DNA of 64,000 nucleotides from a virus (IMGVR_UViG_3300035228_001133:14402-78401); one strand, 5' to 3'. Numbered from the stretch's first letter, positions 30,101 through 59,722 are shown. The notes: generated from the sequence alone by a model not told the origin. Program-made: numbers and translations.

Positions 30101-31568
30101 TGGTGATTACGGTGTTATTGCATCTGGATTCTCCACAGACGAAAGCCCAAGAACATCAAGAGTCTTTGGTTCTCTGATGGAAGTAAACGGTCCAACTAAG
30201 GCTGGTACTCTGGCTATTGGTGCTACCATGTTTGGTGCAACCTCTGGTGCTCGTGGATGGTTCATTAACGATCAAACCGCTGCAGACAGAATTTACTTCA
30301 AGTATCATCCTGGTTATGGTTCAGTTGGTCTTGGAACCACTGGATTCGTAGATGGTGAGATTATCTGGTTCGGTGCTGGCGGCGACAGTCAGGCTGGTGT
30401 TGGTTCTATCACAGTTTCTGGTGTTACTTCCTCTATCGGCGGACAAAGAGGAACAATCCTTGAGGTTGACAATATTTCTTCAACACTCTTAGTTGGTGAC
30501 GCACTTGGATTCTCTACAACCTCTTATGGTGATGACAATCTCTTCTATATCATCAATACAGTCACGAATATCTCTGCTGCTTCCACATACACGTATTACA
30601 CACCTAGTGGTATTGCAACAGTAACATATCAAGATCGTGCTACGCTGACAATTTCTCCAGAGAAGTCAAGTGGTACATGGGATACCCGAGAGGTAACTGG
30701 TGCAGGTTCTACACTATCTGTTAGAACCCTCTTCTCACAGTGTCGCCTAACAGGACATGACTTCCTGAGTGTTGGTACTGGTAACAAGGCAGAAACCAAT
30801 TATCCCGATGTTGATCAAACTCAGATTATTCAGGGTAATGAGACTAATATCTTCGGTCCTGGTAAGGTATTCTTTGTTTCCACTGACCAAGGTGGTAACT
30901 TCAGAGTCGGTCAATTCTTCTCCGTTGATCAGTTGACTGGTCGTGCAACCTTGGACGCTTCTGCGTTCAACCTGTCTGGTTTGACTGAACTGAGACTGGG
31001 TGCAATCGGTGGTCAAATTGGTGAGGCAATCAACGAATTCTCCTCGGATGAATTCATGTCTGGTCAGTCCAATACTGCATGTCCTACTGAGGGTGCAGTT
31101 GCTGGATTCCTCCGTCATGGTGCGATGGGCGTCAAGGCAATGACTCCACCAGTTGGTACTACTGCCGAAAGACCTGGTGGGCTCGATGAAGAGTTCAACA
31201 CTGGTGCTTTGAGATTCAACACTGATCTTGGTTCTATTGAATTCTATAACGGATCTATTTGGACACAACCTGGACTTAAGACCTACTCAACGGTATCGAG
31301 TTCTGGCGCGGTTGCGGCGGGTCAGGTCTACTTTGTTAACACCACTGGTGGTACTCTAACTCTGACTCTACCTGCATCCCCCGCACTGGGAGATACCATT
31401 AGATTCTATGATGTTGCCAACACCTATGATTCTAATGCGTTGGTCGTTGGACGTAATGGGAAGAAGATTCAGGGTGATGATTCTGACATGACGGTCAATC
31501 TTGAAGGGGCTTCATTTGAACTCGCCTTCTCGGGTGATACCTACGGTTGGAGATTGTTCTCCGTCTGA
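27135..31568 (+). CDS. Tail fibre/tailspike-like protein (1477 aa)
   Basis: AAGGAG RBS; MAEFRLGR start; about five WxxxxxYxxxDxV repeats; beta-helix-type domain (YYVD...AFKTIKAA...EQLPIxVP...SPYVKDCT...DSFTQ); STDQGGNFRVG; GTTAERP; C-terminal TLTLPASPxxGD module. Confidence 0.85.
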   Translation: MAEFRLGRVKFNWTGNWDTSKSYLIDDIAKFGGNTYVAVANHTSTGSTANFYTDLGNWNLHIEGLENRGSWSPDTYYRVNDLVTFGNVVYRVTVAHTSVGTFIDETKVVQYVAGFNSEGEWQNTTEYQQGDVVNYNGSSYVAITTSAAGFNPPEYIGLGTGSKWNVLSDGLAGAAVTYTEGTYYRGDMVLFGGNSYRHKLGITTNVSPVQAGLGTVGDAQYSGTAVWDLLVKGISFVGNFSTTFAYHPGHVVRYGSNSYVSVGASFVNINPIAGVGTYWETLAAGDSAAALNTKGDILTYNGGPARIGIGSTGYALAVQSDGVPGYEIVGNQTRIYYVDSEDGLDANNGLAPNLAFKTIKAACAAARPDNNITDFQYTAATGVATITSPGHGLANVGTFVQLAEIEFECLSGGNVFNILGMTYNKAVGLATITAIGLGAAPEIGIGATVRLRNLGISFTGNANFEHQFSRAESDALITGGDYIHNFVAATSGAVNVVTGSLSGSQLTPTNAVYTATSGELEITVGSHGLSISDTISFDANSMTFTCQMDGGSSNKTYPRTTDPAYGVNLSINAITANTFTVNVGPSPIVNFQVGGATYNQVTGDIVMDVGVHQLDIGTSVKLLTEGIVFKCSMDGYLTDHAYPRATAGDGSPDPAYNTALSITAATTTTITVNVGTASSSQTITGKFPAVHTQASTFQFPVQAVPDNNSIVVNVGVSNTDYLYVSGGTAFVGVTTTVYPDKVSKSYFEVLQVIDANRIRANVGISTINHTYVRGGHLTDLTPAILKLSASQFYEQLPIKVPPFTSIIGNSLRGTQVLPAAGFSDDSVTPNNRSQMFQLSDATTLQAMSMKGMEGFMYDPNVPFVLDNSNIRTGLGTTAAGVVCAFNPDSPINNKSPYVKDCTVFSDNASDFGRHGGGAVGVFADGGVHSEGAKSIVFDSFTQVSSDGAGYILDKSAISEIVSCFTYYCKWGYYSGGGSRIRSVGGNNSYGDYGVIASGFSTDESPRTSRVFGSLMEVNGPTKAGTLAIGATMFGATSGARGWFINDQTAADRIYFKYHPGYGSVGLGTTGFVDGEIIWFGAGGDSQAGVGSITVSGVTSSIGGQRGTILEVDNISSTLLVGDALGFSTTSYGDDNLFYIINTVTNISAASTYTYYTPSGIATVTYQDRATLTISPEKSSGTWDTREVTGAGSTLSVRTLFSQCRLTGHDFLSVGTGNKAETNYPDVDQTQIIQGNETNIFGPGKVFFVSTDQGGNFRVGQFFSVDQLTGRATLDASAFNLSGLTELRLGAIGGQIGEAINEFSSDEFMSGQSNTACPTEGAVAGFLRHGAMGVKAMTPPVGTTAERPGGLDEEFNTGALRFNTDLGSIEFYNGSIWTQPGLKTYSTVSSSGAVAAGQVYFVNTTGGTLTLTLPASPALGDTIRFYDVANTYDSNALVVGRNGKKIQGDDSDMTVNLEGASFELAFSGDTYGWRLFSV

Positions 31569-31637: not shown

Positions 31638-32420
31638 ATGGCCAACTACAGATCATATAAAAAAGTAACTGCGGCCCAGGTTCCAGATGGGTCCATCACC
31701 GTTGATAAACTTGCTAGTGGTGTTGGACCGAGCTGGAACGTAAAAACAGTTTACGGAGATCCATCATCAATGACTTCTGGTTGCTGTTGTCTTTGGACTG
31801 TTCCAACTGGAGTTGGTAAAATTACTTGGGAACTATGGGGTGCTGGTGGTAATGGACATGGTGCATGTTCTTGCAACAGATGTCATCACTACAAAGGTGC
31901 TGGCGGTGGAAGTTACAACACCAAGACAATTTCTACAACAGGAAGTTGTCAATATACAGTATGTGCTGCTGGCGTCTATAGATGCTGTTCTAGAGAATGT
32001 ACTGGATGTTACGGATGTTCTTCATATGTAAATGGATATAATCTAAGTAACTTCTGTGCAGTGGGTGGTGGTAGAGGAGAAGCCAATACTGATTGGTCTA
32101 ACCTCTGTGCATCTGTCCATCACACCTGTATGCAACCAGGAACATATGATGGGGACTTTGCAGTAAACCCTCATTGGCCAGGATTCAGTGGTCAATGGAA
32201 CTGTCATTGTGGTCTGTCGAATACACAAACTTGCAGTGGTGGAGCCGCACTAATTGGAATTGGTAATAAAACGTACTCCAGTCACTGTTGGATGCGTTGT
32301 GGTTGCTGGATCGCACCATATGGTGCTGGTGGCCAAGGCGCAATGACTTCATATTGTGAAAGATGCTGCGGTCAAGGCGGTACTGGTGGATCTGGAATAG
32401 TACGTATCACATACATGTAA
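31638..32420 (+). CDS. Cys/Gly-rich protein, paralog 1 (putative fibre tip/adhesin)
   Basis: 25 Cys in 260 aa; WTVPTGV..WELWGAGGxG...GGxGGSGIVRITY glycine-rich domain frame. Confidence 0.8.
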   Translation: MANYRSYKKVTAAQVPDGSITVDKLASGVGPSWNVKTVYGDPSSMTSGCCCLWTVPTGVGKITWELWGAGGNGHGACSCNRCHHYKGAGGGSYNTKTISTTGSCQYTVCAAGVYRCCSRECTGCYGCSSYVNGYNLSNFCAVGGGRGEANTDWSNLCASVHHTCMQPGTYDGDFAVNPHWPGFSGQWNCHCGLSNTQTCSGGAALIGIGNKTYSSHCWMRCGCWIAPYGAGGQGAMTSYCERCCGQGGTGGSGIVRITYM

Positions 32421-32433
32421 TCAAGGGGAATCA

Positions 32434-33231
32434 ATGGCCGACTACACAAGTTATAAAAAAATTAGTGGAGATCAACTAGATAGTGGAATCTTAGGATCTG
32501 CAAAATTTGCTTCATCCCCAACTTCAACATTTGGAGTAAAGTGGATCTATGGAACTGCGTGCCGATGTTCACCTGGATGTTGCTGCGCTTGGGTTGTTCC
32601 TACTGGAGTTAAGAAACTCTGGATCCAGGCTTGGGGTGCTGGTGGTAATGGAAATGGTGCATGTTCATGTAGTAGATGTCATCACTACAGAGGTGCTGGC
32701 GGTGGACTGTATAACAGTGTGATGTTAGATACCGCCGCTGGATGTACATATTCTGTATGTGCAGGTGGTGTGTATCCATGTCTTTCTAGAGAGTGTGCTG
32801 GATGTAACGGATGTACTTCATACGTTAATGGTTATAATTTAAGTAACTTCTGTGCATACGGTGGATCTTGTGGTCACGCCAACACTAGTTGGTCAACTGC
32901 ATGTAATGCAGAATGGCACTGCTGTGTGGCTCCTACATCTAATGGTGGTCAGTTTGGTATGGGTAACCTACGAGACACTTGGTCTACTGGTGGACATGAT
33001 ACTTACCGTGGTTGGTGTCATTGTTGGGTTCAGATGCAAACACCAACTTCTGCTCCATTCATTGGAACTGATGTTCATATGTCAAATAGAGAGTGTTGGA
33101 TCCGTTGTGGTTGCTGGATTGTTCCTTATGGTCATGGTGGTCAGGGCGCACACTCTTCATATTGTGGTTCAAGTTGCTGCGGACAAGGCGGTACTGGTGG
33201 CGGCGGACTCGTCAAAATCACTTACTTCTGA
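32434..33231 (+). CDS. Cys/Gly-rich protein, paralog 2
   Basis: 27 Cys in 265 aa; colinear with paralog 1. Confidence 0.8.
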   Translation: MADYTSYKKISGDQLDSGILGSAKFASSPTSTFGVKWIYGTACRCSPGCCCAWVVPTGVKKLWIQAWGAGGNGNGACSCSRCHHYRGAGGGLYNSVMLDTAAGCTYSVCAGGVYPCLSRECAGCNGCTSYVNGYNLSNFCAYGGSCGHANTSWSTACNAEWHCCVAPTSNGGQFGMGNLRDTWSTGGHDTYRGWCHCWVQMQTPTSAPFIGTDVHMSNRECWIRCGCWIVPYGHGGQGAHSSYCGSSCCGQGGTGGGGLVKITYF

Positions 33232-33237
33232 TAAATA
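33230..33237 (+). promoter_or_regulatory. Late promoter GATAAATA
   Basis: Overlaps the paralog 2 stop, 20 bp before the ATG at 33258. Confidence 0.65.
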
Positions 33238-33257
33238 ACTATTAAATAGGACTCCAA

Positions 33258-34055
33258 ATGGCCAATTACGCTTCTTATAAACAGATTAGTAACTCCCAAA
33301 TTGTTAATGGGTCTATTACTAACACTCAGCTAGAGAGTGGAGCATTCTCTAACTGGAATGTTAAGTGGATCTATGGGGATCCTGGAACATTGTCATCTGG
33401 TTGCTGTTGTCTTTGGACTGTTCCAACTGGAGTCCAAAAAATGTACGTGGAACTCTGGGGCGCTGGAGGAAATGGACATGGAACATGTTCATGTAACAGA
33501 TGTTATAACTGGCATGGAGCTCAGGGTGGATACTATAATGCAAAAACTCTTTCCGTAACACCAACAAATCAATATACAGTATGTGCTGGTGGTGTTTATC
33601 GTTGTTGTTCTAGAGAATGTGTTGGATGTGATGGATGTGTTTCATATATGAATGGAACTGGATTATCTAACTTCTGTGCAATGGGTGGCACTAGAGGTTG
33701 TGCAACTAACTCTTGGTCCACAACTTGTAGTTCCACTATGGCTAAGTGTTGTATGGAACCTGGTGCTCATGGAGGAGACTTTGGAATGGGTAACCATGGT
33801 GGTGGTACTAGAAAAGGATACGGTGGTGATGGTATGTACTGTCATTGTTTCTTCAATGAGACTAGATCTACAGGAGCTCCATTTTTGGGTACTATGGCAG
33901 TGGCTAATACGGTTAGACATTGTTGGGTCCGTTGTGGTTGCTGGAGAGCTCCATATGGACATGGTGGTCAGGGTGCGATCACATCTTACTGTGAAAGATG
34001 TTGCGGACAAGGTGGAACTGGTGGCGGTGGTCTTGTTAAAATTAGTTATATGTAA
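33258..34055 (+). CDS. Cys/Gly-rich protein, paralog 3
   Basis: 25 Cys in 265 aa; colinear with paralogs 1 and 2. Confidence 0.8.
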   Translation: MANYASYKQISNSQIVNGSITNTQLESGAFSNWNVKWIYGDPGTLSSGCCCLWTVPTGVQKMYVELWGAGGNGHGTCSCNRCYNWHGAQGGYYNAKTLSVTPTNQYTVCAGGVYRCCSRECVGCDGCVSYMNGTGLSNFCAMGGTRGCATNSWSTTCSSTMAKCCMEPGAHGGDFGMGNHGGGTRKGYGGDGMYCHCFFNETRSTGAPFLGTMAVANTVRHCWVRCGCWRAPYGHGGQGAITSYCERCCGQGGTGGGGLVKISYM

Positions 34056-34095: not shown

Positions 34096-34120
34096 AGACC
34101 TCGGAAAGGGGTCTTTTTTT
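34096..34120 (+). terminator. Rho-independent terminator
   Basis: AGACCTC-GGAAA-GGGGTCT followed by a T tract. Confidence 0.8.
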
Positions 34121-34129
34121 ATGTTTTAT

Positions 34130-34137
34130 TATAAATA
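34130..34137 (+). promoter_or_regulatory. Late promoter TATAAATA
   Basis: Exact consensus directly after the terminator. Confidence 0.85.
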
Positions 34138-34171: not shown

Positions 34172-34942
34172 ATGGCAACAGAAATTATTTCTCACGATTG
34201 GAACATGCCTGTTCCAAACGCTTTTCTAAGAGATCACTCATATTCCGAAGGCAAATCAAGAGCTGTCACTTACGATGGTCCTGACAAAATTTGGCTCCAA
34301 ATTGGTGCCGATGGGACAGAAAAGTACGGTCCGTTAACCGAAGATGACCTTGCTGATGGGAGACCAATCCCAGCCGATGTAACTCAAATGTTTGAAGTGG
34401 ATTGCACAGCGTATCCACTAATTTGTCAACTGAGGGGACCAGTCATCGATGAAAAAGAAGAAACACGAGACGTTGATGATGACGTTGCTCATCCAGATTG
34501 TCCCGATATGACTGCTCAAGGGTACAGACAATTTAAGTATAATCAGCATTTGTTTATCGAAGATCTTTATGACGCATCAACTGTAAAAGTTGTTGATGGA
34601 GTTCCAACAATACATGCATTTACTGTTCAGGAAAAACTCCTTGGCAGACCAACTGATTTGACCTGGGATGAGATTAGATCTCATAGAAATTCAATTCTTG
34701 ATCAGACTGATGGTCAAATTGCAGATGACATGCCCGAGGACATGAAGAATTCTTGGAAAGCGTATCGTCAGAAGTTGAGAGATCTGCCAACTGAATTGGA
34801 AACTGCTGGTGTTTCACCAAATATAGCATACTACATGTTCCCAGACCAACCATTTTATACTGCACCTCCATCTGACCCAGAAGCACCTGCAGATGCAACT
34901 GCCGATTGGGCCCCTCCAGAGAGTGGTGTTATTAACGGTTGA
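34172..34942 (+). CDS. Protein with C-terminal phage tail-fibre assembly chaperone-like domain
   Basis: WDEIRSHRNSILDQTD...WKAYRQKLRDLP motif followed by a Pro-rich tail. Confidence 0.7.
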   Translation: MATEIISHDWNMPVPNAFLRDHSYSEGKSRAVTYDGPDKIWLQIGADGTEKYGPLTEDDLADGRPIPADVTQMFEVDCTAYPLICQLRGPVIDEKEETRDVDDDVAHPDCPDMTAQGYRQFKYNQHLFIEDLYDASTVKVVDGVPTIHAFTVQEKLLGRPTDLTWDEIRSHRNSILDQTDGQIADDMPEDMKNSWKAYRQKLRDLPTELETAGVSPNIAYYMFPDQPFYTAPPSDPEAPADATADWAPPESGVING

Positions 34943-34974
34943 GTTTAAGGTAGATATATAATATTATATTATAT

Positions 34975-34995
34975 GGGAGCTAAGGCTCCCTTTTT
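34975..34995 (+). terminator. Rho-independent terminator
   Basis: GGGAGC-TAAG-GCTCCC followed by TTTTT. Confidence 0.75.
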
Positions 34996-35008
34996 AATGA
35001 GAAGAAAT

Positions 35009-35641
35009 ATGTTTGAACTAAATGAATCTCGTAAGACGACAGTAAAAAAAATATATGATCATTCTAAAAATGAACTAGGATATGTATGGAGATATGTAAT
35101 TACTGTAGATGATTTCTATAAAGATCCTGATAAAGTGCGAGAAATTGCTCTTAATGGTACTCGCAAGACAGATAAGAAATATACGGGAAATCTTATAGGA
35201 TCAAGAGTTGTTGAAAATATAGAAGGATTTGATGAGAATTTAAAATCAGTTTTTGAAAAAGCATGTCAATTTGATTTTTGGAATCCAGAGTACGATGATA
35301 CTTTTTGGAGAGATACTAAATTTATGGTAAATATCACTAATGGGGATGATATTGAAAATAGATTTAATGAGAAAAAACATACCTATACATTCCATAAAGA
35401 TTCAACCAATTATAAGTGGGCTGCAGTAATTTATCTCAATAAAGATGAAGAATGTGATGGGGGAACTAACTTTTATGCTTGGATGCCAGAAGATCCATCA
35501 GCCGTACCAAGATTGGAATATGAATCTGAAATGAAATACAATAGGATGGTATTATATGAATGTGGTCACATGCATGGAGCAGTTCTTAAAAGAGGTATGT
35601 TTACTGAGTTTCCAAGACTTGTGCAAGTATTATTCATGTAA
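35009..35641 (+). CDS. 2OG-Fe(II) oxygenase-like protein (DUF6445-type)
   Basis: VDDFYKDPDKVR, FHKD (HxD), WAAVIYLN...GGTNFY, MKYNR, HMHG, RL. Start placed after the terminator hairpin. Confidence 0.7.
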   Translation: MFELNESRKTTVKKIYDHSKNELGYVWRYVITVDDFYKDPDKVREIALNGTRKTDKKYTGNLIGSRVVENIEGFDENLKSVFEKACQFDFWNPEYDDTFWRDTKFMVNITNGDDIENRFNEKKHTYTFHKDSTNYKWAAVIYLNKDEECDGGTNFYAWMPEDPSAVPRLEYESEMKYNRMVLYECGHMHGAVLKRGMFTEFPRLVQVLFM

Positions 35642-35651
35642 TTTTGGTAGA

Positions 35652-35658
35652 CTAAATA
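35652..35658 (+). promoter_or_regulatory. Late promoter CTAAATA heading the glycosyltransferase/carbamoyltransferase operon
   Basis: Intergenic; same variant as before gp8, gp15, gp18 and gp19. Confidence 0.65.
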
Positions 35659-35703
35659 CATCAGAATAGATCATTCTTTATCATACTGTTTGGAGTTTTT
35701 TAT

Positions 35704-36879
35704 ATGAGATCCAAAGCATTTTTTGTCAATGGAGGAGCCGGTAGAGTGCTTTGCTCCATTCCTGCATTTGAAAAATATGCAGAAACCCATGATGATTTTA
35801 TCATCGTTGCTGAAGGAGGAACAGACTTTTTTAAAGGTCATGCAACTCTAGATGGCAAAGTCTATGACATGTGGCACAAAAATTTGTTCCATGAACATTT
35901 GAAGCATAGAGACTGTGTTTCACCAGAACCATATAGAATGTGGCATTACTACAATCAAAAATGTAGTTTGGCACAAGCTTTTGATATGGAAATCAACGGT
36001 CTAGATGAACCGAGAGAACTTCCCAAACCAACTCTCAATCTCACTAAGATGGAGGTTATTGCTGGTTACAATATGATTCAAGAAGTTAAAGCAGTAACTG
36101 GTAAAGATAAGGTAGTAGTAATCCAACCTTTTGGTAGAGGAGTTCAGACTGTTGGCGAGTTTATTGCAGACGCTTCTTCAAGAAGTATGTCTCTAGTAAA
36201 CACTGTAGATATTATTAATGATCTCAAAAAAGATTATGGTGTTATTGTCATGGCTGAACTTCAGTTTCCTGTAGAAGAAAATGAAGACAAGTCAAAATAT
36301 AAAATTGCAAGACCTCAGATTGATGACATTAGGGTATGGGCTTCTGTCATAGACGTTGCTGATCATTTTATAGGTGTAGATAGTATCGGTCAACATATTT
36401 GTAAGTCTCTTGACAAAAAAGCAACTGTAGTTATTGGATCTACTTATCCAGTTAATATTTCTTATCCAGAGGATAGTAACTTTGATCTAATTGATATTGG
36501 TTTAGACAGAAGGAAATATTCCCCAATTAGATTGACTATGGATGAAACTATTGATCGTTATAATGATCAATCCATGGAAATGTCTGCGGAACAAGTCAAA
36601 TCTATTTTACGTTCTGCTAGAAAACATTTAGGCAAACCCACTTCGTTTAAAGGAACTTATACGCCTCCACAAAGTACGGATTGTCCTACCTGTCCACCTG
36701 GAACTTCATCAACTCCTGCAGTTGCACCAGGAAGTACTGCAATGTTGCCAGGAAGTAGTACATTGATGCCACAACCTCAGTGGAATCAGCCACCTGCAAA
36801 TATTGCAGAAAAACCCAAAAAACCAAAAGTAGGTTTCAAAAACGAAGTAAAGAATCTACTGAAAACTGATATTAATTGA
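35704..36879 (+). CDS. Putative GT-B glycosyltransferase (GT9/heptosyltransferase-like)
   Basis: NGGAGRVLCSIPA resembles the GT9 GxGDxxxxxP region; VVIQPFG; ADHFIGVDSIGQH resembles the GT9 xxDSGxxH motif; VVIGST. Pro-rich tail with CPTC. Confidence 0.55.
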   Translation: MRSKAFFVNGGAGRVLCSIPAFEKYAETHDDFIIVAEGGTDFFKGHATLDGKVYDMWHKNLFHEHLKHRDCVSPEPYRMWHYYNQKCSLAQAFDMEINGLDEPRELPKPTLNLTKMEVIAGYNMIQEVKAVTGKDKVVVIQPFGRGVQTVGEFIADASSRSMSLVNTVDIINDLKKDYGVIVMAELQFPVEENEDKSKYKIARPQIDDIRVWASVIDVADHFIGVDSIGQHICKSLDKKATVVIGSTYPVNISYPEDSNFDLIDIGLDRRKYSPIRLTMDETIDRYNDQSMEMSAEQVKSILRSARKHLGKPTSFKGTYTPPQSTDCPTCPPGTSSTPAVAPGSTAMLPGSSTLMPQPQWNQPPANIAEKPKKPKVGFKNEVKNLLKTDIN

Positions 36880-36888
36880 GGTATTTAA

Positions 36889-38685
36889 ATGTCACAATGG
36901 ATTGCGGCTATTGCCCGAGGTCATAACTCAGGGCTCTGTCTTCTCAAAGATGGTGAAATTGTATTATCAATAGAAGAAGAACGACTTTCTAGGAACAAGT
37001 ATGATGGAGGTCCATATGCGTGTATGACTAGAATTTTGGACTTCACAGATACTCTTGATTATCTCGTTATCGCACATACTCAACCACTGAGTGAGGCTGG
37101 TCAATGTGATTTCAGTGGAGATCCCATTTATGTTGCATTGGCAAGAAAGTTGGGACTAATCGATAGGAAAGCAAATCCACATCAACACCCACAAGTTATT
37201 GATTTGAGTGCAACTCACCATAAACTTCACGCAGCATGTGCCTTCTATAGGTCTGGATTTAGTCGTGCTGCAGCCGTTGTTGTTGATGGTGCAGGTACTT
37301 TTATTCCCATGAATATTAATGGGGAAAATGAAATGACTTGGGAATTGGAAACTCTATTTAATTGTGAGTATCCATCAGAATTTAAGACAATATATAAACA
37401 TCAAGGCGGAAGAGGTCCATGGACATCTGTTCGATTTGAGGAGTTTAGTAGTAAAAGGGAAGGTGAGGAAGGAACTCATGAAATGATTCTTGATGATACT
37501 GCTGGTATTACTAAGGCATATGAAGCTGTAACACAGTATTGTGGGTGGTCTCCTATTGAAGCTGGTAAAACTATGGGTCTATTCCCCTATGGAAACCCCA
37601 ATGATGATATTCCCGATGTGTATACCGATTATAATGGTGCCTCTGAGTGGAAGACATCCAATAGAGACCTCATTACACCAACGTATCCTAACGGTGCCCT
37701 AGTCAATCAGGGGCGGTTTAAATACCTTAAGACTGACTATGACTATGAAGGTGATATGACCCTCCTACAGAACCGTAGAGACATGGCATACGCTATTCAA
37801 GTAGAGTCTCAACAGATGGTTCTGGATCTCATTCGCAAAGTTGTAGGTATGACTGGTCAAACTAATGTAGTATTGACTGGTGGATATGCACTAAATTGTG
37901 TTGCTAACTATTGGTATCTTGAACAACTAAAAGATGAAGGTATTAATCTATTTGTAGAACCTGTAAGTAATGATGCTGGTACTGCAATTGGAGCTGCACT
38001 TCTCCAATACCATAGAGTAACTAAAGATGCACAAGTCCGTGAACCACTAAAAGATCTTTATACTGGATTTGAATACATGTATTCGACTGATCAAATTGTA
38101 GATACTGCAGATAAGTATAACTCCACAAGAGTTTTTGAATCTACAAACAAAGATGTAATTGATTTAATTACCAATAAAAATATTGTTGCTATCTTCCAAG
38201 GTAGATCCGAGGCTGGTCCCAGAGCACTAGGTAACAGGTCCATTCTTTATGATCCTCGTGATCCAGATGGAAAGGATTTTGTCAATAAAGTAAAAAATCG
38301 TGAATACTTCCGACCTTTTGCGGGATCAATCCTTAAAGAACATGTTCATGAGTGGTTTGATCTTCGTGGCATGGACGAAACCCCGTTCATGATGTATGCT
38401 GTTAAATGTCAGGATGGGATTGAAGAAAAAATTCCTGCAATTATTCATGTTGATGGTACTTGTAGGATTCAAACAGTCACTGAAGATCAAAATAAAAATT
38501 ATTATGATTTGATTAAAGAATTTTATGAAGCTACTGGTTGCCCTATTGTCTTCAACACTTCTTTTAATTTGGGGGGCGAGCCTCTCGTTGAAACACTTGA
38601 TGATGCTTGCAGAACCCTTTCTGAATCTGATATTGAATATCTCTACTTACCCGAACATGGGTTGATGATTGAGGCTAAAAATTAA
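36889..38685 (+). CDS. O-carbamoyltransferase (NodU/CmcH/TobZ family), full length
   Basis: EEERLSR.K, HHxxHA, VVDGAG, AGKTMGL, GGYALNC, NDAGTAIGAA; C-terminal GPRALGNRSIL, REYFRPFA, HVDGTCRIQTV, NTSFN. Confidence 0.92.
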   Translation: MSQWIAAIARGHNSGLCLLKDGEIVLSIEEERLSRNKYDGGPYACMTRILDFTDTLDYLVIAHTQPLSEAGQCDFSGDPIYVALARKLGLIDRKANPHQHPQVIDLSATHHKLHAACAFYRSGFSRAAAVVVDGAGTFIPMNINGENEMTWELETLFNCEYPSEFKTIYKHQGGRGPWTSVRFEEFSSKREGEEGTHEMILDDTAGITKAYEAVTQYCGWSPIEAGKTMGLFPYGNPNDDIPDVYTDYNGASEWKTSNRDLITPTYPNGALVNQGRFKYLKTDYDYEGDMTLLQNRRDMAYAIQVESQQMVLDLIRKVVGMTGQTNVVLTGGYALNCVANYWYLEQLKDEGINLFVEPVSNDAGTAIGAALLQYHRVTKDAQVREPLKDLYTGFEYMYSTDQIVDTADKYNSTRVFESTNKDVIDLITNKNIVAIFQGRSEAGPRALGNRSILYDPRDPDGKDFVNKVKNREYFRPFAGSILKEHVHEWFDLRGMDETPFMMYAVKCQDGIEEKIPAIIHVDGTCRIQTVTEDQNKNYYDLIKEFYEATGCPIVFNTSFNLGGEPLVETLDDACRTLSESDIEYLYLPEHGLMIEAKN

Positions 38686-39092
38686 TGAAGACTGTATTTG
38701 TAAATGGCACGTTTGATATTTTACATCCTGGACATATAGAACTATTCCGAGTAGCGAGATCTCTGGGTGATCGTGTCATTGTCGCTACAGATAGTGATGT
38801 GAAGATCAAAAAAGATAAAGGTCAAACTAAACCCATAAATGATCTTTGTTATAGAATATCAATGCTTGAATCAATCAAGTATATTGATGCTGTCCACTAT
38901 TTCAACGATCGAAAGGGATTGGAAGATCTTATCCGAGTTTATAAACCAGATATTCTCCTCTTAGGAAATGACTGGGAAAATGGTGATGTTGTTGGAAAAG
39001 ATATTGTCAAAGACGTTAGATTCTTGCCAAGAGTTGGAGATTATTCTTCAAGCTCAATTATTAAAAAAATTCTAATTAATAACTTGGACTGA
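38685..39092 (+). CDS. hldC: Sugar-1-phosphate nucleotidyltransferase (HldC / RfaE domain II-like)
   Basis: VFVNGTFDILHPGH (HIGH-type motif), KGxxKPIN, PDILLLGNDW, YSSSSII. Confidence 0.8.
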   Translation: MKTVFVNGTFDILHPGHIELFRVARSLGDRVIVATDSDVKIKKDKGQTKPINDLCYRISMLESIKYIDAVHYFNDRKGLEDLIRVYKPDILLLGNDWENGDVVGKDIVKDVRFLPRVGDYSSSSIIKKILINNLD

Positions 39093-39868
39093 TGGAATGT
39101 AATATATTAGTTATTGGGGACTCATGTGATGATGAATACATCTATGGAGATTGTTCTAGGTTAAACCCAGAAGGACCTATTCCTGTTCTAGACAAGACAT
39201 GTACAGAAATAACACCTGGAATGGCATCAAATGTCAATGCTAATTTAAAATCTTTTGGTATCAGAACAAATCTGATTACCCAGAAAGAAAAAATTAAAAA
39301 AACACGATTTGTTGATAAGAAAAGTAATTATCAATTACTCAGAGTTGATACTACTCCTGAGGTAACTCCACTAAGTGCTTCTCAAATAAAAATGGCATTT
39401 ATGCATAGTCAATATGATGCACTAGTAATATCAGACTATAATAAAGGTTTTCTTACGGATGAATCATTACGTATTATCTGCACATATTTTAAAGGACCAA
39501 TTTTTATTGACACAAAGAAAACTAGATTATTTCAACAATCTAATGTTTTCTTCAAGATAAACAAAAAAGAATATGATTTACTTGATCGTGAATTTATGCC
39601 TCATGATACTAATTTAATTGTAACTTTAGGATCAAATGGATGTAAGTGGAGTGGTATTCATTTCCTACCAAGAAAAGTTAATGTATTTGATGTATGTGGT
39701 GCTGGTGATACCTTTCTTTCTGCCTTAGTGGTTGAGTTTATTCGCACAAAAAATATGCAGAAGTCTATTGATTTTGCAAATAAAGCAGCTTCTATTTCCG
39801 TAGAAAACTCGGGAACATATAAACTAACTAAAAATGACATTGTAAGAATTTATAATGAACGAGTTTAA
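39092..39868 (+). CDS. hldA: PfkB-family heptose-7-phosphate kinase (HldA / RfaE domain I-like)
   Basis: ILVIGDxxxDxYIYG..RLNPEGPIPV, GMASNV, KTR, ISDYNKG, VFDVCGAGDTF. Confidence 0.85.
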   Translation: MECNILVIGDSCDDEYIYGDCSRLNPEGPIPVLDKTCTEITPGMASNVNANLKSFGIRTNLITQKEKIKKTRFVDKKSNYQLLRVDTTPEVTPLSASQIKMAFMHSQYDALVISDYNKGFLTDESLRIICTYFKGPIFIDTKKTRLFQQSNVFFKINKKEYDLLDREFMPHDTNLIVTLGSNGCKWSGIHFLPRKVNVFDVCGAGDTFLSALVVEFIRTKNMQKSIDFANKAASISVENSGTYKLTKNDIVRIYNERV

Positions 39869-40400
39869 GAAACCCAATCCAGTATTTTGGATGCCTTTTT
39901 TCATAGAAGAAATTGATATTAGTAAATTAGAATTCAAAGAAGAACCAGAATATACTCCAACTTTTATTTCTCGTACTCCAACTACAATGGGGGAAGATGA
40001 ACTTACTCAAGAGTCATACAATTATCTTGGCAGGATTCTTTGGGAGTGTATAGGTCAATATACGGAGAAACCATTTTATATTGGTTCTGTTTGGCGTAAC
40101 AAGTATGTGAAAACAGACTGGCAAGATCCACATATTCATTCTGGAGCTCAATGGAGTTTTGTGATTTATGTGGATGTTGAGGAATCTAAGACTGTTTTTC
40201 TTTCCCCAAGTAGACACAATCAAATGAATCAATGGGGACATCTAGGTCATGCGTTTCCTTTAGACTTTTCTCCAAAAATTTCTCCTGGAAATATTATAAT
40301 TTTCCCATCATTCATTGAACACTTTGTTCCCCCTGGGAATGAAGGCATAACTATATCAGGTAACATTTATTATGATCAGCCTCCTGGAGGACCAGTATGA
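39855..40400 (+). CDS. Putative 2OG-Fe(II) oxygenase
   Basis: WRNKY...QDPHIH...SFVIY...IIFPSFIEHFV...TISGN double-stranded beta-helix pattern. Confidence 0.7.
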   Translation: MNEFKKPNPVFWMPFFIEEIDISKLEFKEEPEYTPTFISRTPTTMGEDELTQESYNYLGRILWECIGQYTEKPFYIGSVWRNKYVKTDWQDPHIHSGAQWSFVIYVDVEESKTVFLSPSRHNQMNQWGHLGHAFPLDFSPKISPGNIIIFPSFIEHFVPPGNEGITISGNIYYDQPPGGPV

Positions 40401-41515
40401 AGCAAGTTGGATTTCACTTATCCCATAACTCCTCAGTATCAGTTCTTTCTGAAGATGGGGACATTGAACTTTTCCTGGAAGAAGAAAGATTGTCTAGATT
40501 AAAATATGATAACGATCCATTTCATGCATGTAACATGGTTCTTGGTGGACTTACCATGGATGAGATTGAAAAATATGAAGTAGCAACATCTGCATTAATA
40601 TCTAAAGACAAGCTGGGAGTAAGTACATTAGATCGTAGTAGTGATATGTTAATGATGTATGTTTCTAAATCATTAAAACTTCTACCACATGAACAAAACT
40701 CTTTTAAGTATGAAATAGTCAAAGAAAAATTTGAAAAGTTTTTTGATCATCACTTATTTCATGCTTATTGTGGATTCTATAATTCTGGATTTGATGATGC
40801 AGTTGTAGTTGTGGTTGATGGTATGGGAAACTTCATTTCTCCTGCAGAAGATAGGCATGAGGTTGTTTCCATATTCGATGCATCTTATCCATGTAATATG
40901 AATTTTTTAGGAGGGATGTCTACACCCTCTTATGATAGTTGTGATGAATCTGAACATAAAGGTGAGTGGACATGTGGAATTGGTATGATATACTCCGCAG
41001 TATCCTCATATATGGGTTTTGGTGGACTTGGGGCTGGAAAAGTAATGGGTCTTGCTTCATACGGTAAAGAAGATCCCAATATTAGATCTTTCCTTTCTGA
41101 TGGATTTAATGTAGATTCAAATCTTTTTTATAGGTCTAAGTATGGATGTAATTTTATTCCATATGATTACTTACCTCATCATAGAGAAGCTGAAAATACT
41201 AAGAATCACTTTGAAAAATTATCTAACCTTGCTTGGAGACTTCAAGAAGATTTTCAGACTCATATGTTAAAAATTTTATTGGACGCTCTTGCAATATCGA
41301 AACGTAAAAATATTATTTTAACTGGTGGATGTGCATTAAACTGTTCTGCAAATTATTGGTATTTGGATAAGTTGCCAAAAGATGTTAAACTATATGTGGA
41401 ACCTATTAGTAGTGATGCTGGAATTAGTATTGGACTATCTAAGGTTCAACATTATTCCCAAACTGGTTCCATGAAAAAATATCCACTTAAAAACTTATAC
41501 TTGGGCCCCGAATGA
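40397..41515 (+). CDS. Carbamoyltransferase N-terminal (Kae1-like transfer) domain only
   Basis: HNSS, EEERLSRLK, HHLFHA, VVDGMG, AGKVMGLA, GGCALNC, SDAGISIG; ends at LYLGP with no YrdC-like domain. Confidence 0.85.
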   Translation: MKQVGFHLSHNSSVSVLSEDGDIELFLEEERLSRLKYDNDPFHACNMVLGGLTMDEIEKYEVATSALISKDKLGVSTLDRSSDMLMMYVSKSLKLLPHEQNSFKYEIVKEKFEKFFDHHLFHAYCGFYNSGFDDAVVVVVDGMGNFISPAEDRHEVVSIFDASYPCNMNFLGGMSTPSYDSCDESEHKGEWTCGIGMIYSAVSSYMGFGGLGAGKVMGLASYGKEDPNIRSFLSDGFNVDSNLFYRSKYGCNFIPYDYLPHHREAENTKNHFEKLSNLAWRLQEDFQTHMLKILLDALAISKRKNIILTGGCALNCSANYWYLDKLPKDVKLYVEPISSDAGISIGLSKVQHYSQTGSMKKYPLKNLYLGPE

Positions 41516-41838
41516 GATATAATGTAGATATAGATGGCACTATTTGTATTCCTGGAAAAGGAGAAGGCAGATATATTGAAGCTGTGCCTATTACAGAAAG
41601 GATCTCTAAAATAAATGATCTATATATTAAAGGACATCAAATAATCTACCATACCGCTAGAGGTATGGGTACATTTAATAATGATCGAGAACAAGCTAAG
41701 GAAAAGTATTACGACTTCACTCACAAACAACTGTTGGAATGGGGATGTATGTTTCACGATCTTTTCTTAGGAAAACCTTCAGCTGACTATTACATTGACG
41801 ACAAAGGAGTAAGTGCCCATGAATTCTTCGATACCTAG
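41512..41838 (+). CDS. Small HAD-superfamily phosphatase
   Basis: VDIDGTIC (DxD), HTARG, GKPSADYYIDDK. Confidence 0.8.
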   Translation: MRYNVDIDGTICIPGKGEGRYIEAVPITERISKINDLYIKGHQIIYHTARGMGTFNNDREQAKEKYYDFTHKQLLEWGCMFHDLFLGKPSADYYIDDKGVSAHEFFDT

Positions 41839-42193
41839 AGCAGCAGAACCAATTAAGTTCGTGTCCAAAGGATGGGGATATGAAAAATGGATAGTTAACT
41901 CAGAACAATATTGTGGAAAACTCCTCTTCATTGCAAAGGGGAAACAATGTTCTTGGCATTTTCATAAAAAGAAAGACGAAGTTTTTTACGTTCAAAGTGG
42001 AAAAATTAAAATCTACTATGGGTGGGATGACAATATTGAAGTCGCTAATGTATCTGTACTAGAAACTGGAGATAAGTTTCATGTTCCTATTGGAATGAAA
42101 CATAGAATGTATGGTCTTTCTGATACTGAATTATTTGAATTTAGCACAGAACATTTTGATGAAGATAGTAATAGAATTAAACCTGGAGATTGA
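41819..42193 (+). CDS. Cupin-fold sugar isomerase-like protein
   Basis: KGWGYEKWI, SWHFHKKKDE.F, GMKHRM, EFSTEHFDED. The AAGGAG RBS favours the ATG at 41819. Confidence 0.75.
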   Translation: MNSSIPRAAEPIKFVSKGWGYEKWIVNSEQYCGKLLFIAKGKQCSWHFHKKKDEVFYVQSGKIKIYYGWDDNIEVANVSVLETGDKFHVPIGMKHRMYGLSDTELFEFSTEHFDEDSNRIKPGD

Positions 42194-42798
42194 TGAAAGC
42201 TGAAAAAATAACAGATCTAATTGTAGTTTTAAAAAATCATATCCCAGACGAAACCTGTGATGAAATATTGGAATGGTTTAAATCGAACAAACATCTCCAA
42301 TCCGATGGAGTAGTTTATAATACTACTGAAGGAAAAGTCCCTGGACCTACTGTTAATAAAGATTTTAAAAATGCCATTCAAACTCTTGTTCCCCCAGAAG
42401 CATCAATATCCGATAAAATGACAGATATTACTATATCTGCACTTAGGGAAGCGAGTTCTAGATATCCAATCCCACCAGATAGCATAACACTGAATGATTA
42501 TTGTGTTAGAGTTTATCCAAAGGATGAGGGTATATTTAAGTTACATGTTGATCAACATGCATTTGGTACAGTAAATAGGTTATTTGCTTGCATCATGTAT
42601 CTCAATGATGTTGAGGAGGGCGGAGAAACAGAATTTCCAGATTGGAATGTATCAGTAAGACCAGAGAAGGGAAAAGTACTACTATTTCCATGCAATTATT
42701 TGTTTAGACATAAGGGAAATGTTCCCATTTCGGAAGAAAAATATATCGCTACAAATTTTATTAACTTTATGATACAAGATATTCCTCCAGTGTCTTGA
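42193..42798 (+). CDS. 2OG-Fe(II) oxygenase (prolyl-4-hydroxylase-like)
   Basis: FKLHVD (HxD), YLNDVEEGGETEF, LLFP...HKG, EKY. Confidence 0.85.
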   Translation: MKAEKITDLIVVLKNHIPDETCDEILEWFKSNKHLQSDGVVYNTTEGKVPGPTVNKDFKNAIQTLVPPEASISDKMTDITISALREASSRYPIPPDSITLNDYCVRVYPKDEGIFKLHVDQHAFGTVNRLFACIMYLNDVEEGGETEFPDWNVSVRPEKGKVLLFPCNYLFRHKGNVPISEEKYIATNFINFMIQDIPPVS

Positions 42799-43570
42799 GT
42801 CTATAGTTTAACCATTCCATATCTGCACAGGTATAATCTTGATACTTACCTTTTAGGTGATCGGGGAAAGGAATCATTTCGATTTCTCCCCCTTCTTTTT
42901 TAGCAACTAATTCTGCAACTCTCTGGAATGACATTGGTTTGCCAGTTCCAATATCATAGATTCCACTGGGAGCGTCATTATTCAGGACAATATTGACTAC
43001 ATCATTTACACATACAAAGTCCCGATAAAACTTATCCGATCCTTCAAACAATTTAAGTTTTCCCGTCTCTCTGATCTGTTTGGTAAATTTAGATACGGGA
43101 CTAGCTTGATCTCCTTTATGATCCTCTCCCGTTCCATATACATTGAAATATCTAAATCCTTGAATGCTCTCAAACCGATCTAGATTGTCCAATACATAAT
43201 AATCTATGATCAATTTGGAAATTGCATACTGATTCAAAGGATTTATCTTTCTACATTCTTTAGTTTGATTCCCATACACAGATGCAGAAGATGCGTACTT
43301 TACAGGAATTTTGTGTTCAATTGCGTGTGAAAGCAAATGAGCAGTAAAAGATTGATTGTAATGTGCAATCTTTACCCAGTTTTTTTCTGTTGTAGATGAG
43401 ATTGCTCCATTATGAATTATTAGATCTACATTTTCCCATCCGTTAAATTTAGACAGAAATTTCCATGCGTTATCTATATCAATTCCAATAACATCATGTT
43501 CTCCTTCAGTTTCAAAATAGTTCTGAAAATGGGATCCAATAAACCCCTTATATCCAGTAATTAAAATCAT
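42767..43570 (-). CDS. hldD: ADP-L-glycero-D-manno-heptose 6-epimerase-like extended SDR
   Basis: ILITGYKGFIGS, HNGAISSTTE, YASSASVYG, PLNQYAISK (YxxxK), GFRYFNVYG.GEDHKG, RDFV, IPFPDHLKGKYQDYTCAD. Confidence 0.88.
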   Translation of the reverse strand: MILITGYKGFIGSHFQNYFETEGEHDVIGIDIDNAWKFLSKFNGWENVDLIIHNGAISSTTEKNWVKIAHYNQSFTAHLLSHAIEHKIPVKYASSASVYGNQTKECRKINPLNQYAISKLIIDYYVLDNLDRFESIQGFRYFNVYGTGEDHKGDQASPVSKFTKQIRETGKLKLFEGSDKFYRDFVCVNDVVNIVLNNDAPSGIYDIGTGKPMSFQRVAELVAKKEGGEIEMIPFPDHLKGKYQDYTCADMEWLNYRLKTLEEYLVS

Positions 43571-44283
43571 CAGTATAATATCGTTGGAATAGGTAGAAAT
43601 AATGATTGAGCGAGTCTATACTTACCAACCGTTTGATCAAAATGACCTGGATGTTGATATACACCATGAAGAAAATTGTCTGGATATACAATTAATCTAT
43701 TGTATTTCATTTCTGCTAAGTGAACAAGTTCCCAAGGACCAACACTATCTCTTACGATGTCCTCTTTCCAGATCCCAGATTGGTCTATATCAACACAACT
43801 CATTCCCTTATAAGTATAAAATCCAGTGCCACCATGACATTCTTCTGGCGTGTTTAAATAAATTACACCTGCCCAACCTTTAATTAAATTTTTACTATCT
43901 ATAGGAGAATCTATGTGTGGAATTGTATTCTGAGCTTCTGCAGTTACATTTACCGAGAATGTAAGTTGTTTGCATCCACAGATAAATCGTTCTTCTTCAT
44001 CTTTTGACAATCCATAAACTGATTTGGCTATGTCAATCCAGATTGGAACTAAATGATCAAGATCAAAATTTGCGCTAACTCTACCACCTGGCACTCCTCC
44101 ACAAATTCTTCGATTTAAAGTTGCAGGAATTCTTAGAGCCAAATCTCGAACCATATCGGGATTTTTATAGAAATTATCAATGTATACGATTGGCTTTTCT
44201 TCCCATCCCATTAACTCTACTCTTGCATCCAATTCATCATTGACTGCAAACGTTTCGATTTCATCTATTAAGTACTTTTCCAT
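43570..44283 (-). CDS. 2OG-Fe(II) oxygenase-like protein (DUF6445-type), paralog of 35009..35641
   Basis: IDNFYKNPDMVR, PHID, WAGVIYLN...GGTGFY, EMKYNR, LHG, YRLAQ. Confidence 0.75.
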   Translation of the reverse strand: MEKYLIDEIETFAVNDELDARVELMGWEEKPIVYIDNFYKNPDMVRDLALRIPATLNRRICGGVPGGRVSANFDLDHLVPIWIDIAKSVYGLSKDEEERFICGCKQLTFSVNVTAEAQNTIPHIDSPIDSKNLIKGWAGVIYLNTPEECHGGTGFYTYKGMSCVDIDQSGIWKEDIVRDSVGPWELVHLAEMKYNRLIVYPDNFLHGVYQHPGHFDQTVGKYRLAQSLFLPIPTILY

Positions 44284-44287
44284 GAGA

Positions 44288-44295
44288 TATAAATA
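44288..44295 (+). promoter_or_regulatory. Late promoter TATAAATA for gp13
   Basis: Exact consensus in the 38-bp divergent gap. Confidence 0.85.
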
Positions 44296-44321
44296 TGTTG
44301 AGAACCCTATGATTATTAGGA

Positions 44322-45140
44322 ATGGCTAAGCCCTCCAGTAGAGAAGAATTGAAGCAATATTGCCTCAGGAAACTCGGAAAGCCAGTATTGGAAGTCAATG
44401 TCGATGATGATCAAATCGAAGACTTGATTGACGATGCAGTCCAATTATACCACGAAAGACATGGGGAGGGAATAGATAGAGTGTTCCTAAAGCATAAACT
44501 GACCAAAGAAGAAAGAACTGCTATGGTTGGAGTTGCTCAAACAACAACTGTTACTGATACTTTTGGCGGGATTTCTTCTGCAGATTATACAGAACAAGCT
44601 AACTACCTCCCATTACCAGACACTATTATTGGAGTTAATAAGATATTTAAAATGGACTCATCCACCTTATCGGCGGGGATGTTCAATATAAAATATCAAC
44701 TCTTCCTTAATGATTTATACTACTACGGCGCAATAGATTTATTGAATTATAGTCAAACAAAATCATACTTGGAGACTATAGACTATCTACTTAATCCAGA
44801 TGTTCAAATAAGATTTAACAAAAAGAACGGTAGATTGTATATGGATATAAATCTAAAAGAACTCACGGAAGATCATTTTCTAATATTAGATTGTTATAGA
44901 GTTGTAGATCCAGAAAGTGAAACTGCTGTATATAATGATTTATGGATTAAAAGATATACAACATCCCTAATTAAAAGACAATGGGGACAAAACCTTATTA
45001 AGTTTCAAGGAGTTAAACTTCCTGGCGGACTTGAGATGAACGGTAGACAACTGTTTGATGACGCTCAACGAGAGTTGGAAGATCATGAACAAAAGTTGAT
45101 GACCGAATATGCCATGCCACCTTTAGACATTATAGGATAA
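44322..45140 (+). CDS. gp13: Neck protein gp13
   Basis: LRKLGKPVLEVNVDDDQIED, KRQWGQNLIKFQGVKLPGG, MPPLDIIG. Confidence 0.93.
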   Translation: MAKPSSREELKQYCLRKLGKPVLEVNVDDDQIEDLIDDAVQLYHERHGEGIDRVFLKHKLTKEERTAMVGVAQTTTVTDTFGGISSADYTEQANYLPLPDTIIGVNKIFKMDSSTLSAGMFNIKYQLFLNDLYYYGAIDLLNYSQTKSYLETIDYLLNPDVQIRFNKKNGRLYMDINLKELTEDHFLILDCYRVVDPESETAVYNDLWIKRYTTSLIKRQWGQNLIKFQGVKLPGGLEMNGRQLFDDAQRELEDHEQKLMTEYAMPPLDIIG

Positions 45141-59681: not shown

Positions 59682-59705
59682 AAAGACCCTTCGGGGTCTT
59701 TTTTT
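59682..59705 (+). terminator. Rho-independent terminator with C(UUCG)G tetraloop
   Basis: AAAGACCC-TTCG-GGGTCTTT followed by a T tract after gp23. Confidence 0.93.
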
Positions 59706-59714
59706 ATGCCTTTT

Positions 59715-59722
59715 TATAAATA
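59715..59722 (+). promoter_or_regulatory. Late promoter TATAAATA
   Basis: Exact consensus just after the terminator. Confidence 0.85.

Follow-up and report, generated by a model that had tools for sequence, protein, structure and literature searches.

Cyanomyoviruses are known to carry a block of genes, lying between their fibre-like genes and gp13, that has been described as the 'lipopolysaccharide (LPS) gene' set T4-GC 302-308 (Sullivan et al. 2010, PMC3037559). Its members include P-SSM2 (PSSM2_307-313), S-SSM7 (SSSM7_120-133), S-CAM1, S-CAM3, P-SSM5 and Synechococcus phage Sf-FS3. In that literature T4-GC 302 is 'hypothetical', the HAD protein is a 'phosphoheptose isomerase' and the cupin a 'nucleotidyltransferase'; no chemistry is given, LPS synthesis or 'stuffer DNA' has been suggested as the role, and recent work still files such genes under cell-wall modification (PMC12801897). 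Our literature search found no paper proposing or testing virion heptosylation. We analyzed a member of this set at positions 35000-44300 of a 64,000-nucleotide stretch (the window; IMGVR_UViG_3300035228_001133:14402-78401), which is a fragment of a 78.4-kb IMG/VR record from a T4-like cyanomyovirus (Kyanoviridae-type). The cassette has the same genes, gene order and genome position as the published set, is 84% identical in DNA sequence to Sf-FS3 and is syntenic with S-SSM7. Its identity as a system for ADP-heptose synthesis, one GT9-type sugar transfer and O-carbamoylation is well supported. Our analyses further suggest, with a probability of roughly 0.45, that this phage-borne cassette heptosylates and carbamoylates fibre or adhesin proteins in the cytoplasm.

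Four described systems bear on this comparison. TibC and AAH, of the BAHT family, are soluble and transfer single heptose units from ADP-heptose to adhesins, and the hallmarks of the family are an N-terminal beta-barrel, a thumb made of a beta-hairpin, and an iron finger with four Cys (PMC4358343). The phage transferase shares their GT9 fold, but it has neither the beta-barrel, since residue 1 of its model lies opposite TibC residue 96, nor the four-Cys iron finger, it carries, judging by a low-scoring alignment, Arg or Lys at the position of TibC D110, and it is accompanied by its own ADP-heptose supply and a carbamoyltransferase. To our knowledge, the 7-O-carbamoyl-heptose of Pseudomonas is the only well-known natural carbamoyl-heptose. 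In the LPS inner core of that organism it is produced by WaaC/WaaF and the putative carbamoyltransferase WapO (PA5005) (PMC8005017), the same pairing of GT9 enzyme and carbamoyltransferase as in the cassette. The Pseudomonas acceptor is Kdo-lipid A in the inner membrane, whereas the hosts of the phages considered here are reported to be without that core. The canonical ADP-heptose pathway (GmhA, HldE or HldA plus HldC, GmhB, HldD) supplies the best-matching families for the kinase, adenylyltransferase and epimerase of the cassette; where it has a SIS-fold GmhA and a GmhB, the phage has a cupin and a 108-residue HAD protein (mini-HAD) instead. Finally, Freeman et al. reportedly found in 2023 that mycobacteriophages modify proteins of their virions, in the capsid and tail tube, with glycosyltransferases encoded among the structural genes. 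Those systems differ from the cassette in glycosyltransferase families, sugars and targets, and have neither a sugar-nucleotide pathway nor carbamoylation.

We infer the enzymatic steps from the protein families, and with them the roles of the cupin and mini-HAD, the acceptor and the timing. The cupin (41813-42193) would isomerise sedoheptulose-7-phosphate, an abundant intermediate of the Calvin cycle and the pentose-phosphate pathway, to D-glycero-D-manno-heptose-7-phosphate in place of the missing GmhA. An HldA-like kinase (39092-39868) would form the 1,7-bisphosphate, the mini-HAD (41512-41838) would take off the 7-phosphate in place of GmhB, an HldC-like enzyme (38685-39092) would yield ADP-D,D-heptose, and an HldD-like epimerase (42767-43570, minus strand) would convert it to ADP-L,D-heptose. 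The soluble, divergent GT9-fold transferase (35704-36879) would then move one heptose onto the acceptor, and a TobZ/NodU-type enzyme (36889-38685) would O-carbamoylate the sugar at the expense of carbamoyl phosphate and ATP. The most probable acceptors are the tail-fibre or Cys-rich adhesin-like proteins encoded nearby, one or several of which would be modified in the cytoplasm during late expression, as by TibC/AAH. Such a cassette would be self-contained, needing only a common sugar phosphate from the host.

All thirteen genes listed by the first-pass annotation are present, with their families borne out, and the translational coupling that it described is seen at seven of the eight junctions within 36889-42798 on the plus strand, where the genes overlap by 1 to 26 nucleotides. 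The three heptose-supply proteins have TIGR02199 (HldC-like heptose-1-phosphate adenylyltransferase, 7.6e-33, with HPGH and SSS motifs), TIGR02198 (HldA-like heptose-7-phosphate kinase, 1.2e-38, a short PfkB protein with a GAGD motif) and TIGR02197 (HldD-like ADP-heptose 6-epimerase, 5e-68, with GxxGxxG and YxxxK) as their best NCBIfam families. They are shorter than the bacterial enzymes, with HPGH, GAGD and YxxxK intact, and HldA (4e84) is the best Protein Data Bank (PDB) match of the kinase. The epimerase gene is convergent with the operon and lies on the minus strand in all relatives. The carbamoyltransferase at 36889-38685 is full length, with Kae1-like and YrdC-like parts (Pfam Carbam_trans_N and Carbam_trans_C); its PDB matches are 7xb6, TobZ, NovN and GdmN, and the metal motif HHKLH...DG is kept. 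A second, accessory protein (40397-41515) is a stand-alone Kae1-like carbamoyltransferase domain without the YrdC-like domain (Carbam_trans_N only), which aligns to TobZ 20-352 and retains the HHxxH...DG motif.

The cupin and the mini-HAD are candidates for the two canonical steps that are otherwise missing. No match to SIS-fold GmhA (TIGR00441, PF13580) was obtained in this record, Sf-FS3, S-SSM7, S-CAM1 or P-SSM2, and a canonical GmhB was not found. The mini-HAD is a capless phosphatase of the EcbF/BcbF capsule-phosphatase kind (TIGR01689, 6e-08; PDB 9iqw, a capsule biosynthesis protein, 1.6e-08) that keeps all four HAD motifs (DIDGT, T48, K88 and DD96-97). The cupin (Cupin_2) has an HxH..E..H metal site; its top PDB relative is a bicupin of unknown function, and L-ribose, D-lyxose and mannose-6-phosphate isomerases are also among its relatives. 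HldA occurs in a second genomic setting in S-SM2, S-T4, P-TIM68 and Sf-CH5/8. In the three phages examined for this setting (S-SM2, S-T4 and P-TIM68), HldC and mini-HAD are there too, with HldD in two and the cupin in two, inside large multi-glycosyltransferase clusters that lie near hli genes in P-TIM68 and, according to PMC3037559, in S-SM2. In S-T4 and P-TIM68, the latter having all five genes, both the cupin and the mini-HAD are neighbours of the Hld genes; of the two, S-SM2 has only the mini-HAD within the stretch read. Phages with this second setting have neither the GT9-like gene nor Cys-rich paralogs, and the carbamoyltransferase is absent from that place. The supply genes are one unit, and the transferase and carbamoyltransferase are another that is tied to the fibre block; since the supply genes travel together, this arrangement supports the cupin and mini-HAD as putative GmhA and GmhB substitutes.

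GenBank consistently mislabels these two genes. 'Phosphoheptose isomerase' is the name given to the mini-HAD, and 'putative nucleotidyltransferase' that given to the cupin, in the records of P-SSM2, S-SSM7, S-CAM1, S-SM2, P-TIM68 and Sf-FS3 (our loci L001-L004 and L169-L171), and the cupin frame of S-T4 (L170:9870-10217) is mostly unannotated.

The 391-residue product of 35704-36879 (T4-GC 302) had no Pfam match and only a weak NCBIfam match (TIGR02201, E 0.0026), and sequence and profile searches against PDB returned nothing significant, with marginal matches at most. An exhaustive profile search gave 519 relatives, of which 65 diverse ones were used for a structure model with a predicted local distance difference test score (pLDDT) of 88; with 20 close homologs as input, the model reached a pLDDT of no more than 59. 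Model residues 1-311 gave VIA-align Z scores of 23.1 to 3tov, 20.4 to WaaF, 19.5 to TibC and 18.5 to WaaC, compared with 11.7 or less for GT-B folds outside GT9, and the top 30 Foldseek matches were all GT9. The GT9 family PF01075 was matched by 28 of the 65 homologs (best E 1.2e-08), and hhalign gave 80% probability to WaaF and 53% to WaaC, aligning the C-terminal domain only. The sequence D226-S-x-G-Q-H231 aligns with WaaC VDTGLSH (D261-T-G) and WaaF NDSGLMH, and both D226 and H231 are invariant in the 65 homologs and in the N4-like phage homologs discussed below. As modelled, the protein is a divergent, phage-specific branch of GT9 and not a BAHT. The adjoining ADP-heptose genes, found in 32 of 37 relatives, are what points to ADP-heptose as the putative donor.

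In the model, a catalytic core (residues 1-312) is followed by a disordered tail rich in Pro/Ser/Thr and then by a short helix of basic character. The part after the core (residues 320-391, encoded at 36661-36879) comprises about 55 disordered residues followed by the helix at 378-388; this tail varies among cyanophages and is absent from the N4-like homologs. Judging from the model, the tail and helix could be a docking or membrane-binding element. Six Cys are present in total, and the sole CxxC lies in the disordered, non-conserved tail.

Homologs of the transferase with 24-27% identity were found in the N4-like Vibrio phages SBP1 and D505 and in Aeromonas phage HJ05, and all of them keep the 18 invariant columns of the family. 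The gene sits between large tail or fibre genes in SBP1 and D505 and among unannotated genes in HJ05, and the N4-like homologs are shorter (244-245 residues). None of the three phages has HldD, HldC or a carbamoyltransferase. The Vibrio and Aeromonas hosts of these phages make ADP-heptose for their LPS.

These homologs also bear on whether the GT9-fold protein is a transferase for virion or envelope. It might instead help assembly by binding a nucleotide sugar, belong to the fibre structure, or act on a soluble small molecule, and a precedent for a structural role is PnsB1, a GT9-fold subunit of the plant NDH complex whose chains match the model closely in fold (Z about 19). A basic residue where the catalytic Asp is expected, the small size of the N4-like homologs and their place among structural genes, and the long disordered tail, whose terminal helix could bind to a partner protein, would all suit such a role. 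However, cyanophage and N4-like proteins share the donor-binding motif and all 18 invariant columns, the acidic E75 (in a PEPY motif), which could serve as the base, is nearly invariant among the 65 homologs and conserved in nine diverse members that were aligned, and a carbamoyltransferase always after the gene, with a full ADP-heptose pathway nearly always at hand, would be pointless without transfer. We regard these alternatives as quite improbable.

Linkage to the fibre block was assessed in 80 IMG/VR loci carrying a transferase homolog with 58-94% identity to the query, using those with at least 4 kb upstream (n = 65) for upstream counts and those with at least 7.5 kb downstream (n = 37) for accessory genes. 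A fibre gene, one or more Cys-rich paralogs and a chaperone-like gene preceded the transferase gene in 65 of 65 contigs, and the full carbamoyltransferase followed it directly in all 62 contigs with enough downstream sequence, so the linkage of the cluster to Cys-rich and fibre genes proposed in the first-pass annotation holds across relatives. HldC, HldA, HAD, cupin and HldD were all present in 32 of 37 loci, with a further 3 cut by the flank, and the second carbamoyltransferase in 9 of 37. The same gene order is found in S-SSM7, S-CAM1 and P-SSM2, which belong to three genera, and in Sf-FS3. Across 50,697 phage records, Cys-rich paralogs occurred only in phages with the GT9-like gene. This exclusive linkage, the N4-like case, the single-sugar design (one transferase in the cassette) and the late box described below make a fibre or adhesin the best candidate acceptor.

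In the window, the candidate acceptors are a tail-fibre-like protein of 1477 residues with CBM5/12 repeats (27135-31568; Pfam CBM_5_12, 'tail fibre-like' in the S-SSM7 annotation) and three paralogs of 260-265 residues with about 10% Cys and about 18% Gly (31638-34055; Gly_rich_2), which may alternatively be fibre tips; all are on the plus strand. Each paralog has 25-27 Cys and a fibre-like N-terminal motif, and GCCC, CSCxRC and CWxRCGCW are conserved. The upstream flank thus consists of fibre-like genes, followed by a 256-residue protein with a tail-assembly-chaperone domain (34172-34942, plus strand; Pfam Phage_tail_APC, 2.4e-09). The downstream flank holds gp13, gp14, gp15 and the terminase, and gp13 (44322-45140, plus strand; 'neck protein' in Sf-FS3 and S-SSM7) marks the boundary, with TATAAATA at 44288.

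The LPS core is the substrate of the best-known GT9 enzymes, and this is one reason to consider that the cassette remodels the host envelope, placing carbamoyl-heptose on LPS or another surface glycan to block superinfection or to keep progeny from sticking to lysis debris. The genes have been named LPS genes (PMC3037559, PMC2984593), 7-O-carbamoyl-heptose is found in the Pseudomonas LPS core (WapO, PMC8005017), HldA, HldC and mini-HAD of other cyanophages lie within multi-glycosyltransferase clusters resembling polysaccharide loci, and late timing would suit the protection of progeny. Cyanobacterial LPS, however, is reported to be without heptose and Kdo (PMC4515613, PMC4390846), so that the classical acceptor of GT9 enzymes is missing. 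The cassette has a single transferase and no recognisable polysaccharide-export or membrane-protein family, its GT9-like gene and carbamoyltransferase occur without exception in the fibre module and are absent from the hli-proximal polysaccharide-like clusters, and the homolog of the lytic N4-like Vibrio phages sits between tail genes. Taken together, we consider action on the host envelope unlikely, though it is the alternative that we take most seriously.

Host genomes were surveyed for the donor pathway. HldD exceeded its cut-off in 1 of 151 Cyanobiaceae genomes and reached E 1e-40 or better in five, and the phage glycosyltransferase subfamily was not found in any of the 151 (best partial matches 28 bits or less). 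With hosts largely lacking HldD and an LPS reported to be without heptose or Kdo, the phage must bring its own donor pathway. One Cyanobiaceae assembly (G071:C1:297477-298118) has an HldD-like frame of 265 residues covering profile positions 58-290, truncated like the phage HldD; the gene may derive from a phage, or the assembly may include a phage contig.

Late expression of the plus-strand operon is suggested by promoter motifs. A TATAAATA/NATAAATA box a few tens of nucleotides 5' of a gene is the T4-type late signal, and the late promoter described for S-PM2-type cyanophages is NATAAATA (PMC2984593). The window contains nine copies of CTAAATA and eight of TATAAATA, all 17 on the plus strand, and 15 of the 17 sit 24-52 nucleotides 5' of a start codon (P 8e-24 for that placement). 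The CTAAATA box at 35652-35658, 52 nucleotides 5' of the transferase gene, had been picked out as a late promoter in the first-pass annotation and is real, being one of these strictly positioned boxes. An NTAAATA sequence occurs within 120 nucleotides 5' of the transferase gene in 57 of 84 related loci, and most of the remaining loci have CTATATA at the corresponding place. This form characterises an S-SSM7-like clade (L002 and L009-L040), in place of the CTAAATA or ATAAATA of other clades; either the late box tolerates this variant or, in this clade, it may have been lost. At 34096-34137 and 59700-59722 of the window, a GC-rich hairpin with a T-run is followed at once by TATAAATA, which we read as a terminator and then a late promoter, placed between structural genes. 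In L025, L044 and L050-L052 such a hairpin and box precede the transferase gene. Three marine metatranscriptome runs contained short contigs of relatives (90-98% identity) in small shares, spanning the chaperone-like gene, transferase, carbamoyltransferase, HldC and gp13; they give no starts, strand or timing, could stem from DNA carry-over, and were not used as support.

The minus-strand pair, HldD and a DUF6445 oxygenase (43570-44283), has no late box in the window. On the opposite strand and without such a box, these last two genes fall outside the late operon, so that the description of the whole cluster as late-expressed stands for the plus-strand genes but not for HldD and this oxygenase. 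The region upstream of the pair (44284-44400) has neither a late box nor a clear sigma-70 site, and the region shows no enrichment of sigma-70-type promoters (34 found against 46 expected). When hldD is the first gene of the minus-strand unit, as in the relatives L023, L031, L046, L047, L056, L041, L048 and L064, a near-consensus sigma-70-type promoter, TTGCAG-N17-(TG)ATATAAT, lies upstream in a spacer shared with the divergent late box. A promoter of this type before hldD suggests that epimerase expression probably does not share the timing of the late operon.

Four 2-oxoglutarate (2OG)-Fe(II) oxygenases accompany the cassette as accessory genes and differ in how often they occur. Among the 37 relatives, the 2OG-Fe(II)/DUF6445 protein at 34973-35641 (plus strand, alternative start 35009; Pfam, HKD motif) is found in 28, the 2OG-FeII_Oxy_5 protein at 39855-40400 (plus strand; Pfam) in 7, the prolyl-4-hydroxylase-like protein at 42190-42798 (plus strand; Pfam 2OG-FeII_Oxy_3) in 22 and the DUF6445 protein at 43570-44283 (minus strand; Pfam, 1.9e-14) in 16. 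No run of four or more collagen-type Gly-X-Y repeats occurs in any large structural protein of the window, and collagen-type hydroxylation followed by glycosylation was rejected because the fibres are without such repeats. The first-pass annotation had put forward a self-contained, late-expressed pathway that hydroxylates, heptosylates and carbamoylates the virion; of this, the self-contained, late-box and fibre-linked parts are retained, while hydroxylation as a pathway step is dropped, given oxygenases in only 7 to 28 of the 37 relatives and the lack of collagen-like repeats.

Phages in other systems glycosylate or carbamoylate bases, and the cassette might likewise place heptose or a carbamoyl group on phage DNA. 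Against this, DNA is not a known substrate of any GT9 enzyme, the cassette is placed in the structural module and not among nucleotide-metabolism genes, and a review says that evidence for modified bases or DNA glycosylation in cyanomyoviruses is lacking (PMC2984593). It would surprise us greatly if the target were DNA.

Several observations weigh against modification of the fibres or adhesins. No glycan has been observed on a cyanophage particle, and the phages with published virion proteomes, S-SM1, S-PM2 and Syn9 (PMC3037559), are not among the GT9-like matches. All three Hld proteins fall below the NCBIfam equivalog cut-offs (for HldD, 229.6 bits versus 274.6 for TIGR02197). In all transferase members aligned, Arg or Lys stands at the position of WaaC D13 and TibC D110, in a low-scoring alignment (a low-scoring HMMER fragment places GGAGR14V opposite WaaC SMGD13V); if the catalytic Asp is replaced in this way, a different chemistry or acceptor is possible, as is a protein that binds the nucleotide sugar and does no more. 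GT9-domain genes occur in 28 of the 151 Cyanobiaceae genomes, mostly without HldD, so the GT9 fold alone is no proof of a heptose donor. Two loci (L067 and L068) with the transferase and full carbamoyltransferase show none of the five supply genes (HldC, HldA, HAD, cupin and HldD) within 10 kb. Gene order conserved among related phages can reflect inheritance and not functional coupling, and late expression would also suit the masking of receptors on lysing cells. As for the two loci without heptose genes, L067 (5828-16315) and L068 have five 2OG-type oxygenase genes and a tryptophan halogenase instead.

A more specific proposal combines these elements: that cyanomyoviruses heptosylate and carbamoylate their own receptor-binding fibres, that the cupin replaces GmhA and the mini-HAD replaces GmhB, and that this GT9 branch has swapped its catalytic Asp for a basic residue. 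We advance it tentatively, at somewhat less than even odds. What the present analysis adds to the earlier description of these genes is the host-genome counts, the N4-like comparison with its checks for absence of the pathway, the two-setting argument for the cupin and mini-HAD, and the difference in the hldD promoter.

Since 2005-2010 these genes of abundant ocean cyanophages have gone under the label of 'LPS genes' or been taken for possible stuffer DNA. If the proposal is true, the cupin and mini-HAD would be new enzymes of heptose metabolism, with the cupin a new enzyme for its first step, and phage virion glycosylation would extend beyond the mycobacteriophages and to a new sugar. The particles would represent the first heptosylated virion and carry the first carbamoylated virion glycan. 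S-SSM7, P-SSM2 and S-CAM1 are cultured isolates, so the hypothesis of fibre decoration is directly testable. A sugar coat that sequence-based prediction of host range ignores would then play a part in how a major group of marine viruses recognises its hosts.

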